From Escherichia coli (lineage in GTDB: Bacteria > Pseudomonadota > Gammaproteobacteria > Enterobacterales > Enterobacteriaceae): DNA of 64,000 bases. The notes below the pieces were generated by a model, which saw only the letters and a program-made list of their open reading frames with translations, had not been told where the DNA came from and did not search any database. Of the stretch, positions 28,903-35,381 are shown one piece after another; the first letter of the stretch is position 1, and each line of letters starts with the position of its first letter. The stretch is from the NCBI RefSeq assembly GCF_016903815.1, contig NZ_CP069973.1. One strand, written 5' to 3'. A program made the position numbers and the translations under genes.

Positions 28903-29910
28903 TTATCTATAGCGTTTTTGTAAACTGGCAGGAAGATAACGCTGTAATGGGGATGGCGTTTCACCTTCAATCAGTTGCGAAATAAGCTCAAAGCAGTGAA
29001 AAGCAAGTTGGCGATTATCCTGTTGTATTGTGTCGATTCTTACCGAAAGTGAATCATACAAATAATGATCATCAAAACTCGCCAGGTGGATTGTACTGTC
29101 GAGTAAATTATATTGGCTCATATAGCGCAGAACGCCTTCCAGTAATCCACAAGCGGCAGTGAATAAGGCTTTAGGAGGACGTCCTAAACGAGCGCATAGC
29201 GCGGCAAACATTTCATAGCCTGAGCTCGGATGATAATTACCGTGAATAATCCATTCAGGTTGTAGCGTTACTCCGGCTTGCTGCAAGCCTTGTGTAAATC
29301 CTTCCAGTCGATCGCGAGTCGGTGACAAACGGGGTTGTCCCCCCAGAAAATAGAATTCATCCGGGTGACTCCGTGCAATATCTGCCACCAGAGCGGCGGT
29401 GGGAGAAACAGAGTCAGTAATGACCAATGGCAATGTGCTGCCGTTCATGTGGCGATCGAACAACACAACAGGTAATTGCTCGCTAAGTTTTTGATAGTCA
29501 TTATCATGCAGCATACTGGATGCGACGATTAACCCATCAACCTGGCGGGCAATCATATTGTTCACCACCATTGTTTCCTGTGAAGGATTTTCATCAGTAC
29601 AGGATATGAGGAGTTGGACGCCCGCTTCCCGACACAATGTTTCCAGTTCATGGGAAAATACTGCAAATCCGTAGTTAGTGATTTCAGGAACGACGAGACC
29701 AATGGTATGACTGCGGTTGTCCCGTAATGAGCGGGCATGAATGCTGGGCTGATAATGCTGCTGTTGGGCAATACTCAGCACACGCTCACGCGTTTCCTGC
29801 GCAACACGTAACTCTTTGCCACGACCATTGAGAACCAGACTGGCGGTTGCTTTCGACACTCCCGCCAGTTCAGCAATGTCTTTAATAGTAACGCGTTTGG
29901 TTTTTCTCAC
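28903..29910 (-). CDS. scrR: LacI-family sucrose operon repressor
   Basis: N-terminal [26 protein letters not shown]; sugar-binding domain; position after scrB. Confidence 0.85.
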
Positions 29911-29935
29911 GACGAGGATCCGTAATTCAAAACCC

Positions 29936-31345
29936 TCATTCTACCATGCAGGCGCGTAGCGACCAGTAGCGTAACGTGACGTCAGACTCACCCTGTAATA
30001 TCAGCGAAGCTGGATGATGGGGAAAATAACGATTACTCATTACACCTTCACCATTATTGATGAATATCTCTACGCTGGAACTGTCACAGAGAATCTTCAG
30101 TGACGTTACGCTTCCTCGCCAGTAACGAGTTAGTTTCTCTTGCCCTGCAAGGCTTCTCCTCTGTAGTTGAATACCATCGTCATTAAGATGCAGTGCCAGC
30201 GCATTGCCAAAATTCAGATACAGCTCACCCGACGGAATGATGTCCATTTCCAGGCGTTCAATTTCGACATGCGGCGCATGATCCGCTTTTCCTTGCCAGA
30301 AGTGTTCAGCTTCACGCAGTTGCGCGAGTTCCCTGATTGGCATCTGAAACAATTTTCCCTTCTGGAATGAGAGTTCGCGAAAACAGGTCATTTGATGCTG
30401 CCAATGATGCTTTCTGGTTGGCTGCAACATCTCTTCGCCATCAGGAACCCCCATCCAGCCGACCAGCAATCGTCGCCCGTCCGGGGCTTCCATCGTCTGT
30501 GGTGCATAGAATTCAAATCCCGCATCCAGCTCTGAGAAAGCGCCATGCGTAAATTTGCCTGTCTCGTAATCAAACTGTCCATGTAGCCAGGCGCAGGGAT
30601 AAGTATTCAGATAGCGCTCATGTTCGCGCACCATTCCCTGGGGGCAACAGAGGAGAATGTATTCACCATCAAGGGCGAAAAGATCAGGACATTCCCACAT
30701 GTATCCTGCGTTATCTATTTCATTCAGACCGTTACCAGCAATTTCTCCATGAAAAGACCAGGTATTCAGATCGACAGAGGAATACAGCAGCACTTTCCCC
30801 CGTTTCTCTTTATCTTGCGCGCCAAGCACCATGTACCATTGGCTGTTGTGCTTCCAGACTTTTGGATCACGAACATGTCCGGTGTAACCATCAGGTAACG
30901 ATATGACAGGGCCTAGTTTATCAAACCCGCCCTGGTTATTTTCGGTGGCCAGACATTGCCATGCCGTTCTGCTGCCATCATCAAACTTAACATTACCGGT
31001 ATAGCAAAGTGTGAGAACGCCCTGATTATTAACCGCGCTTCCTGAGTAACAACCATTACGGTCGTACTCTTTATCGGGCATTAGCGCTAATGGTTCATGC
31101 TGCCAGTGCAATAAATCCGTCGAACTCCAGTGCCCCCAACATTTGTACTTATGATCACAAGCCAGTGGATTCCACTGATAAAACAGATGATAGCGGCCTC
31201 CAGACCAGCAAAAGCCATTTGGATCGTTCATTAGTCCGGTGACGGGAGCGAGATGCCAACAAGGATAGTGGGCATCTGCCAGTGCTTTGGACTGACCTTT
31301 CATCACTGCCTGTAAAATCGCGGGCATTTGTGAAGGCATCGACAT
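29936..31345 (-). CDS. scrB: sucrose-6-phosphate hydrolase (GH32)
   Basis: GH32 motifs [15 protein letters not shown] and WECPD. Confidence 0.85.
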
Positions 31346-32775: not shown

Positions 32776-34293
32776 TTAAAACCAGGTTTCCATTTGGACA
32801 CCAAAATTCCACTCTCCGCCAGTATTGAAACCACTGCTGCCGAAAGCGTCATTGCTGGCAAAATCATCAAGTTTGCTGCTCCAGTCCATCCAGGTGGCAA
32901 ACAGGCGAAGCTCCGGACGGCTAAAGAAATTATTGATATCGTTAGCTTTTAGAGTTGGAGCAAAGGTGAGTTTATAGAAACTGCCGTTTACGGCGTTGTG
33001 GTTTTGATACCCCTTTGGTTTCAGATCCATATATTGATAGCTACCCTCAAAGGCCAGAGCAAAATTCTGTGTTACCTCTTTGATCAGACGTGTATTGAAG
33101 GTCACCCATTCGTAGCTATCGCCTTTGACGTAACGATCTTTACTGCTTTGTGCGAGAATTGCTGGTGCGACATACCAACCGCTTCCCAGAGGTGTTGTGC
33201 CGTAAGATGCGAAGCGCCAGGTATTCGCCTCAGACAGCAGGGCGCCATCGGAGCCAATCCCTTTGACTTCCGCACCCAGGCCATGGCCATATAGCAGTGC
33301 TGTTTTTGCCGTCCCTTCACGCAGGCCATAGAAAGTGTCATTGTGCAGACCAACTAACGCATGTACGCCAGTATTTGCAGCATCAGTTTGAATGAGATCA
33401 CCATTGGCATCTTTTCGATCATCATTATCTTTTGCCCGTAATCCGCTAACCATCAACTGGAAGGGGCCTGCATAATGATTCATGGTGAGGATGTAATTCT
33501 GAACGTTATTGTCGATATCATCAAGATCGCCGAAATTACGTCCGTAGAGAGAAAAGTTACTGCGAAATGTATCGTTCCATTTTACGTCATAGATACCGCC
33601 GCCCGTTCCCGCTAAAAATACGACATCGGAGTCTAACCAGTGAATATCAAAATTGTCGCGATCAAAGCGTTTACCAGCCCAGACAGTACTGTCTTTGAAT
33701 GCTCCGGTAAAACTTGGTAATGCGCCCAGTTCGGCAAAAGCCTGTCGGATATTCAGGTTACTGGAGCCGCCAGTCCAGTCGTTGTAATCTCTTTGTCCGT
33801 CAGCCAACATTGCTTTAAAGCGTGTGGTCGCACCGTTATCCAGTGTTTGTTTATGTTCTACATTTAACTCGACATAGGTATCGGCTTCATTTCCCAGACG
33901 GCCAACAGCTCCACCAGTTTCACCTGCGGGAGTCAGATACGGCCCACTTTTGCTACTGGAAGCGGCATCATTCATCAGTAACCCGGAACGGGCATAGCCA
34001 TGAAACTCAAAACCACTGTTTTCTGCGGATTTCTGTTCGAGCTGAACTGTTCTCTGTGCTACTTCTTGAGTTGTTAGCTGATTTTGTTGTTGTGTTTCAG
34101 CCAGTTTCTGAACCTGTAATTCAGCTGTTTTGGCCCTTGCTTCTGCCGCCTGGGCGCGGGATTCCGCATTTTTTAAACGTTGTTCCAACGCCGCCAGTCG
34201 AGATTCGATACTGCTAATATCCGTTTGCGCATGTACCGTTGTAGCACCGGTCAGCAAAGCAATTAACACTGCCAAAGTTGTTTTTTTATACAT
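32776..34293 (-). CDS. scrY: sucrose porin (LamB family)
   Basis: Signal peptide, coiled-coil N-extension, C-terminal ...GVQMETWF. Confidence 0.85.
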
Positions 34294-34460
34294 AATTTGT
34301 CGCGTCCCATCAGAGAATTATAAAAATTGCTAAAATGCTAAACCGGTTTAGGTGTTGATAATAAAGCTGACTTTTTAGCCAAAGCAATTATTTTCGCTAA
34401 ACCGATTTAGTAAATGTGACAGGCACGACAAATCGGGTTACAGATACAACAGCAGGATCA

Positions 34461-35381
34461 CTATTGTGAAGGGAGATCGTGTTGTCGGGGTAAGGCGGTC
34501 ATCGCGCCTTTAGCCGTGGTCGCCAGAGCACCACAAATCTGAGCTTGTACAATGATTCGTTCAAGCTGTCTGGTATTTGTTGGTATTCCAGAATCAGCCA
34601 GACCGGCAAGTAATCCAGCGACAAAAGCATCTCCTGCCCCGGTCGTATCGACGACAGAAACAGGTTTGGCGGGATAGTGGATAAACTGCCCCTGAAAATA
34701 CACAAGTACGCCATTTTTTCCTTGTGTGATAAGCAATAAAGTCAACGAATAACGTTGTACTAATGAATATGCGCCTTGCTGAACCTGGCTTTCGCCACTG
34801 ATGAATAGCAACTCTTCTTCGGACAATTTAGCGATATTCGCCAGCGAAAGTGCGCGATCAAGGTATTTCCTTAATAGCGCTTCACTCTGCCAGAGATCGC
34901 TGCGGATATTGGGATCAAAACTGATGTTTCCGCCAGCCTGACGTATTTTCTCCATAGCCAGAAATGCGGTACTTCGGGAAGGTTCTGCACTGAGCGCAAT
35001 GGAACAAAGATGGAGCCATTCACCCGGCCCAAATGCAGGAAGGCCATCAGGTTGTAAAAAAAGATCGGCACTTGGGCGTACCATAAAGGTAAAGTTTCTT
35101 TCTCCTTGCTCATCAAGTCCTACAGCCACAATTGAGGTGCGATGTTGAGGATCAAGAGACATATAACGTGTATCAACATTTTCTGTACTCAGTGTCTGAT
35201 ACATAAAGCGACCGAAAGGATCATCGCCAACTTTGCCAATAAAGGCACTTTTCCCCCCCAGCCTTGCGATACCGACTGCAACATTAGCAGGCGCCCCGCC
35301 AGGACACTGTAGTAGTCTCCCCTGGCTTTCGGGTAATAAATCAACAACCGCATCACCAAGTACCCATACTCTTGTGCTCAT
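34461..35381 (-). CDS. scrK: fructokinase (PfkB family)
   Basis: PfkB motifs GGAPANVAVG and DTTGAGDAFVAGLL. Confidence 0.85.
   Translation of the reverse strand: MSTRVWVLGDAVVDLLPESQGRLLQCPGGAPANVAVGIARLGGKSAFIGKVGDDPFGRFMYQTLSTENVDTRYMSLDPQHRTSIVAVGLDEQGERNFTFMVRPSADLFLQPDGLPAFGPGEWLHLCSIALSAEPSRSTAFLAMEKIRQAGGNISFDPNIRSDLWQSEALLRKYLDRALSLANIAKLSEEELLFISGESQVQQGAYSLVQRYSLTLLLITQGKNGVLVYFQGQFIHYPAKPVSVVDTTGAGDAFVAGLLAGLADSGIPTNTRQLERIIVQAQICGALATTAKGAMTALPRQHDLPSQ

Follow-up and report, generated by a model that had tools for sequence, protein, structure and literature searches.

An scrKYABR sucrose regulon carried in a pheV island of Escherichia coli

What is a sucrose regulon doing beside a phenylalanine tRNA gene, and does it work there? 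The genes in question, scrKYABR, lie in a stretch of 64,000 nucleotides of an Escherichia coli chromosome (contig NZ_CP069973.1), and this whole stretch is what we call the window. A sequence-only reading of it had described a complete regulon carried as island cargo, and had hinted at kinship with the plasmid pUR400 and the conjugative transposon CTnscr94. We consider it very likely that this is a complete and probably functional sucrose phosphotransferase system (PTS) regulon, that it belongs to the scr lineage of E. coli, and that it is the metabolic cargo of a non-conjugative island with a P4-type integrase at pheV. The description of the regulon therefore stands. The hint of kinship does not, since ScrY is 77% identical to that of pUR400 while the cluster as a whole is 99.06% identical to a locus next to queE in E. 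coli.

The scr genes and their predicted function

The five genes are open reading frames (ORFs) on the minus strand in the order K-Y-A-B-R, and their outer coordinates are exactly the 28903-35381 claimed for a complete scrKYABR (Table 1). Four of the five products pass curated NCBIfam cut-offs in a profile search. ScrK scores 505.8 bits against the fructokinase model NF006957 (cut-off 450), ScrA 649 bits against the sucrose EIIBC model TIGR01996 (cut-off 559), ScrB 550 bits against TIGR01322 for sucrose-6-phosphate hydrolase (cut-off 356), and ScrR 462 bits against TIGR02417 for the fructose/sucrose repressor (cut-off 390). For ScrY there is no specific model in NCBIfam; the protein matches the sucrose porin of known crystal structure, PDB 1A0S, with E=1.8e-226. 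RefSeq names ScrK an 'aminoimidazole riboside kinase', and we set that name aside because the protein scores above the cut-off of the fructokinase equivalog.

The regulon had been called apparently intact, and a closer look agrees. Inspection of the translations of all five ORFs found no internal stop. The catalytic and phosphorylation motifs are kept: ScrB has MNDPNG, RDP and WECPD of glycoside hydrolase family 32 (GH32), ScrA has the EIIB cysteine motif AAHCATRLR, and ScrK has the PfkB motif DTTGAGD. The lengths of the ORFs, scrR included, are those of the RefSeq coding sequences on identical DNA. There is no EIIA domain in ScrA, where the Pfam scan gives EIIB and EIIC only. This fits the classical system of the pUR400 type, which borrows EIIA-Glc from its host.

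The regulatory sites are also in place. Two scr promoter regions hold three 14-bp palindromes of the form CTAAAYCGRTTTAG, i.e. CTAAAYCGRTTTA(G). When one mismatch was allowed, a search through all 64 kb of the window returned these three scr sites (each on both strands) and one unrelated match, where 0.28 were expected. The two palindromes of scrY are 59 bp apart, and the downstream one lies where the transcription start is expected. In pUR400 two 14-bp inverted repeats bracket the -35 and -10 elements of scrY, with the downstream repeat overlapping the transcription start, and this arrangement of two operators is conserved across the Enterobacteriaceae (PMC11251922). The layout in the window agrees with these published pUR400 operators.

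The mechanism we propose is inferred from the characterised systems of pUR400 and Klebsiella and from a cloned E. coli locus. ScrY would let sucrose pass the outer membrane, and ScrA would import and phosphorylate it. Since ScrA lacks an EIIA domain, the phosphoryl group would come from the EIIA of the host (Crr). ScrB would then split sucrose-6-phosphate into glucose-6-phosphate and fructose, and ScrK would phosphorylate the fructose. ScrR would bind the three palindromes and repress the scrK and scrY promoters until it is freed by fructose or fructose-1-phosphate, both of which have been reported to release ScrR (PMC11251922).

We argue that sucrose uptake and breakdown by this cluster are probably functional. 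The usual location of scr in strains of phylogroups B2 and F is next to queE, and a locus of this type, once cloned from strain SCU-147, was enough for sucrose fermentation and for growth (Stephens et al. 2024, PMC11251922). In the same study 20 of the 24 scr-positive isolates were sucrose-positive. The codons of the island allele and the queE allele differ by 32 synonymous and 14 non-synonymous changes, which fits purifying selection.

Several observations pull the other way and have to be set beside these. The 14 amino-acid differences between the Scr proteins of the two alleles are one. Stephens et al. also saw slow growth on sucrose, or none, in a few of their scr-positive isolates (PMC11251922). 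The putative scrY promoter, which was found by eye, is missed by a consensus scan (its -35 matches 3 of 6 positions), and the scan of the scr locus for consensus promoters and terminators gave no enrichment over shuffles. CRP-like matches in the window are at chance level, with 31 found and 31.5 expected. The weak CRP-like site upstream of scrY agrees with the described CRP site of pUR400 in its position alone, and this site is poorly conserved according to Stephens et al. (PMC11251922).

One can therefore picture a cluster that is intact but silent or poorly expressed, either through xenogeneic silencing by H-NS or its paralog or through changes in the promoter. Such a strain would be sucrose-negative or slow, like some of the isolates just mentioned. 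The GC content of the region is 0.45-0.49 against 0.50-0.55 in the core flanks, and a gene of the H-NS family lies 550 bp away. Possible silencing by H-NS or by this paralog also has to be counted against a functional cluster. Substitutions unique to the island lie at 34382, within the promoter region, and at 35421, within the operator of scrK. However, the operator substitution stays within the Y/R consensus. The synonymous excess argues for maintained function, as does the 100% identity kept across many unrelated hosts, and most of the scr-positive isolates do use sucrose. We regard a silent cluster as improbable, and a working regulon remains our reading.

The island at pheV

The sequence-only reading had called scr island cargo, and the borders of the island confirm this. 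The window comes from an E. coli chromosome. Strain 5283 (NZ_CP103762.1) matches it at 100% identity in 6500-37482 and in 41840-55400, with full identity over 31 kb. The core genes mutY-yggX-mltC-nupG-speC-yqgA come first, with the yqgA flank as in annotated genomes, and then pheV. A search that allowed mismatches only found no second copy of the pheV 3' end. The right border was found with a variant that has a one-base deletion, and the same variant is tabulated for many genomic islands at pheV (GI-pheV; Table 1 of PMC11537424). From attL to attR the island measures ~43.4 kb, and the scr cluster is well inside it. Beyond attR there is an IS110 fragment and then the kps capsule genes. The regulon is thus enclosed by attL and attR repeats in a pheV-integrated island with a P4-type integrase and debris of insertion sequences (IS).

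The island is a mosaic, with modules set apart by IS elements (IS1203, IS66 fragments and a DDE remnant). Its distal part is a yee module at 55612-62127 with a YeeP-like GTPase, DUF932, antirestriction, RadC, CbeA/CbtA and DUF4942 proteins. Further content includes an outer-membrane beta-barrel protein and proteins of the YagK/YfjJ type.

Is this a conjugative element, or what is left of one? A Pfam search of the island ORFs of at least 120 aa outside scr found no relaxase, coupling protein, type IV secretion system (T4SS) or type IV pilus domains; seven of these ORFs lack any Pfam hit. Conjugation genes are likewise absent from the RefSeq annotation of DNA that is identical or 97.9% identical. 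By these gene contents the island is probably non-conjugative. The position of scr beside a Phe-tRNA gene is explained by the role of pheV in E. coli, where it is a general hot spot of islands with a P4 integrase (PMC11537424). Integration at a tRNA-Phe gene, as in CTnscr94, is a property of every GI-pheV.

The porin gives a second line of reasoning. ScrY is 77% identical to ScrY of pUR400 over the mature 413 aa and about 74-75% identical to the plasmid ScrY sampled from Klebsiella, Citrobacter and Leclercia. This means that the cluster is not of the pUR400 lineage. For CTnscr94, whose scr genes would resemble those of pUR400, this identity serves as a proxy. We reject a link to either pUR400 or CTnscr94, given this identity and the lack of conjugation domains in ORFs of at least 120 aa.

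Even so, a scenario can be imagined where the island is a decayed element like CTnscr94, which brought scr to the Phe-tRNA gene and lost its transfer genes afterwards. CTnscr94 belongs to the integrative and conjugative elements (ICEs) of the YAPI/ICEEc2 type and has PilL-V and Tra proteins; it carries scr and integrates into tRNA-Phe genes (PMC4458695). IS elements have rearranged the island heavily: IS1203 and IS66 fragments are present and a deletion lies beside scr, which in principle makes it plausible that genes were lost. However, PilL-V, TraD, TraC, a relaxase and a T4SS have left no trace in the island ORFs of at least 120 aa, and this negative search for residual conjugation genes speaks against the conjugative origin that the earlier reading had hinted at. 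The backbone is that of a usual GI-pheV, with its P4-type integrase, yee/CbtA module and common attR variant. ScrY at 77% to pUR400 also compares poorly with a cluster at 99% to the chromosomal scr of E. coli. A decayed ICE is very improbable. In the non-conjugative island that we favour, the scr module would have entered, or left, through recombination among the IS-rich flanks and not via a sucrose conjugative transposon.

These flanks are the neighbours that had been named, an H-NS paralog on the left and an IS3-family element on the right. With ~90 bits, the left gene stays below the cut-offs of both the H-NS equivalog (211 bits) and the StpA equivalog (202 bits), which makes it a paralog and neither hns nor stpA. 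It is conserved next to scr in the 149 genomes of this context. Between it and scrR lies the non-coding sequence 28497-28838; genomes of enterohaemorrhagic E. coli each have 16-39 places with a similar sequence (80-84%). The one copy examined, in O145:H28 strain 16003, is just downstream of an IS66-family tnpC remnant, and this stretch is probably the relic of an IS end. The scr copies on IncF plasmids have this flank too.

On the right, IS1203 is complete with terminal repeats TGAACCGCCCCGG. It has no target duplication; the flanking triplets, CTG and GCT, differ. Strain CUVET18-1530 has ~14.7 kb at this junction that is absent from the window. The extra segment has a block of sugar-phosphate isomerase, RidA and major facilitator superfamily (MFS) genes, IS66, a NotI-type restriction-modification pair and another IS3 element. 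It also includes the remainder of mkoA and the partner gene. That the window lacks this segment, and that IS1203 has no target duplication, implies an IS-mediated deletion. IS debris on both sides of the scr module offers a plausible route by which it could have moved.

A truncated Mokosh-type MkoA at 37454-40678 (minus strand) ends at IS1203. It comprises the N-terminal 1074 aa with NERD and kinase domains and matches PADLOC PDLC03921 with 627 bits over profile positions 2-1030 of 1607. Strain CUVET18-1530 has the full 1652-aa mkoA and a 515-aa partner.

Table 1. Positions in the window of the scr module, its regulatory sites, its neighbours and the island borders
Feature	Position	Strand	Basis or remark
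scrK, fructokinase, 306 aa	34461-35381	minus	NCBIfam NF006957, Pfam PfkB; own transcription unit
scrY, sucrose-specific outer-membrane porin, 505 aa, N-terminal coiled-coil extension	32776-34293	minus	Pfam LamB and Sugarporin_N
scrA, sucrose PTS EIIBC, 456 aa	31345-32715	minus	TIGR01996; Pfam PTS_EIIB and PTS_EIIC
scrB, sucrose-6-phosphate hydrolase, GH32, 469 aa	29936-31345	minus	TIGR01322; Glyco_hydro_32N and 32C
scrR, LacI-family sucrose/fructose-responsive repressor, 335 aa, GTG start	28903-29910	minus	TIGR02417; LacI helix-turn-helix (HTH) and periplasmic-binding-like domains
scr module common to three E. coli contexts, 6597 bp	28902-35498		blastn
ScrR operator-like 14-bp palindrome, scrY upstream site, CTAAATCGGTTTAG	34397-34410		pattern search
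ScrR operator-like palindrome, scrY downstream site, CTAAACCGGTTTAG, perfect	34338-34351		pattern search
ScrR operator-like palindrome 5' of scrK, CTAAATCGATTTAA	35413-35426		pattern search
Putative scrY promoter, TTGCTT, 18 nt, TATTAT	34358-34387	minus	by eye, between both operators; layout per PMC11251922
Weak CRP-like site, TGTGACAGGCACGACA	34415-34430		2 mismatches; just upstream of the upstream scrY operator
H-NS-family paralog, 157 aa	27878-28351	plus	Pfam Histone_HNS_N; left neighbour of the scr module
IS1203/IS629-type IS3-family element, 1310 bp, complete	36173-37482	minus	rve and HTH_21 domains; RefSeq IS1203 on identical DNA; right neighbour of the scr module
pheV, tRNA-Phe(GAA)	18802-18877	plus	ARAGORN
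attL, last 23 nt of pheV	18855-18877	plus	pattern match
attR, imperfect direct repeat of the pheV 3' end, TTCGATTCCGAGTCCGG-CACCA, 22 nt, one-base deletion	62238-62259	plus	exact match
P4-type tyrosine integrase	19075-20337	plus	Pfam Arm-DNA-bind_3, Phage_int_M, Phage_integrase; RefSeq tyrosine-type recombinase

Other cargo of the island deserves mention in its own right. Next to the integrase, at 20434-22107 (minus strand), is a phosphoethanolamine (PEtN) transferase with a sulfatase domain. It matches the EptA, CptA and MCR models far below their cut-offs, which suggests a divergent EptA/CptA-like PEtN transferase acting on lipid A or lipopolysaccharide. The block at 22760-26402 (minus strand) encodes a 523-aa protein (PADLOC PDC-M40B), a 359-aa protein (PDC-M09A) and a WYL/WCX transcription regulator, and it has the look of a defence candidate that is still uncharacterised. 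The RefSeq name of the 523-aa protein, 'ATP--cob(I)alamin adenosyltransferase', is one that no Pfam or NCBIfam hit backs. A full-length ThsB-like TIR-domain protein is encoded at 50129-50884 on the plus strand (PADLOC ThsB, 424 bits; Pfam TIR_2). There is no ThsA or other defence model among the neighbours scanned with PADLOC, and the protein may belong to Thoeris as an orphan component or form a single-gene system by itself. Finally, the intervals 43429-45929 (minus strand) and 41902-43377 (plus strand) hold remnants of tssG and tssF of a type VI secretion system (T6SS), which are annotated as partial pseudogenes in identical DNA and abut fragments of an IS66-family TnpB and transposase. A T6SS cluster has been reported in some GI-pheV types (PMC11537424), and these remnants are the relic of a cluster of that kind.

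One scr lineage in three genomic contexts

Where else does this scr occur in E. coli? The locus has matches in 1139 of 5426 complete genomes, and 912 records reach 99% identity. In 149 of the 5426 the match covers at least 80% of 27700-36300, which is the context of the H-NS paralog with scr; the examples listed come from human blood, avian pathogenic E. coli (APEC) of types O1:K1:H7 and O78, dogs, ducks and river water. Of the roughly 990 complete genomes with most of the locus, ~149 have the pheV-island context. When the query includes both flanks, a much larger class of genomes matches only the scr module itself, at 99.1%. Strain SCU-176 is one member of this class, and its scr cluster is between queE and ygcE. 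IncF conjugative plasmids provide the third context, and 22 plasmids match scr at 98.9%.

We compared the alleles using one representative per context. The pairwise differences between the island, queE and plasmid alleles number 62, 67 and 70, so that the three are equidistant, and the substitutions unique to each are scattered along the module. This implies a split about as deep as divergence within the species, and not a recent one. The three copies would then be sister alleles ~1% apart. Since all three are equidistant, the idea of a very recent copying from queE to the island is unsupported.

It is worth considering the contrary, that the island scr is a recent secondary copy made within E. 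coli from the queE site or from an IncF plasmid, and that it is no old independent lineage. All three contexts do hold one scr lineage at ~99% identity. A plasmid has 461 bp of island-type left flank (97%), which links the island and plasmid contexts, and IS debris flanks the island copy. However, the equal distances and the spread of unique substitutions along the module, in one representative per context, speak against a recent copy. We think this scenario rather unlikely, and we keep the three copies as sister alleles.

The same facts invite a broader suggestion. One scr lineage specific to E. coli is present in three vehicles, the queE/CRISPR2.2 site of the core chromosome, the pheV island and IncF conjugative plasmids, and the plasmid retains its piece of island-type flank. 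Tentatively, the IS-ridden pheV island could be a staging post, where F plasmids either took up the 'native' operon or brought it in, within a shuttle between chromosome, island and plasmid inside the species. We put this forward as a possibility that falls somewhat short of being probable. Neither the 2024 survey of scr nor the 2024 survey of GI-pheV describes such a shuttle for sucrose use.

How much of this is new? The Scr pathway, the gene cluster, the E. coli allele and the island family have been described before, and many RefSeq genomes contain identical DNA with annotation. The pathway is textbook material, and its presence here has little importance beyond bookkeeping. The occurrence of one scr lineage in three genomic contexts is possibly under-described, and this is a modest point. 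Our literature searches found no description of scr in a pheV island. The main text of the GI-pheV paper does not contain 'sucrose' or scr; its single 'scr' string belongs to 'script' (PMC11537424). The two recent papers closest to the subject place E. coli scr at queE or omit it from GI-pheV, whereas ~149 complete genomes have it in the pheV island. Together with the sister allele on 22 plasmids, these genomes point to a greater mobility of sucrose use in E. coli than the phrase 'native to B2' conveys. Strains with the scr island are predicted to be sucrose-positive and fast on sucrose. That would bear on diagnostic media, and perhaps on fitness in the gut or on plant diets of APEC and other lineages of extraintestinal pathogenic E. 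coli (ExPEC).

Comparison with known systems

The closest relative of the window cluster is the scr locus adjacent to queE, at the CRISPR2.2/iap site (SCU-147, SCU-176). It has the same genes in the same order and of the same lengths, with the same operator palindromes. The queE-ygcE locus of SCU-176 is 99.06% identical to the window at the nucleotide level over 6597 bp (blastn). The two differ by 62 substitutions or indels, 14 amino-acid changes among them. They also differ in site. The window copy is in the pheV island between the H-NS paralog and IS1203, and the homology to the queE locus ends on one side exactly with the stop codon of scrR, on the other 117 bp upstream of scrK.

The IncF conjugative plasmid pJJ1887-5 (NZ_CP014320.1) is 98.84% identical over 7071 bp, which corresponds to 28441-35511 of the window and includes the 461 bp of island-type flank beyond scrR. 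Its scr copy is beside IS1 in an F-plasmid backbone, whereas the window copy is chromosomal. Its scrR (9204-10210) has a 1-bp indel and no annotated coding sequence, while scrR of the window is intact. Because of this indel, scr on this ST131-type F plasmid may be constitutive.

The island itself resembles GI-pheV as described (PMC11537424). It shares the site 3' of pheV, the intP4-type integrase, the attR variant, the mosaic structure with IS elements, the distal yee module (like CP4-44) and the kps locus beyond. It differs in its cargo. Virulence modules such as pap, aerobactin or sat are reported for islands with intP4.1 or intP4.3, whereas the window island has scr and defence-type genes.

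CTnscr94 of Salmonella Senftenberg is similar in that scr is carried next to a tRNA-Phe gene. Compared by description and not by sequence, it has conjugation and type IV pilus genes, whereas the window island, which is 43 kb on a GI-pheV backbone, has none among its ORFs of at least 120 aa. The prototype scrKYABR, on the Salmonella plasmid pUR400, shares with the window the gene order, the scrY promoter with two operators and the N-terminal extension of ScrY. It is nonetheless a different lineage, as the 77% amino-acid identity of ScrY shows.

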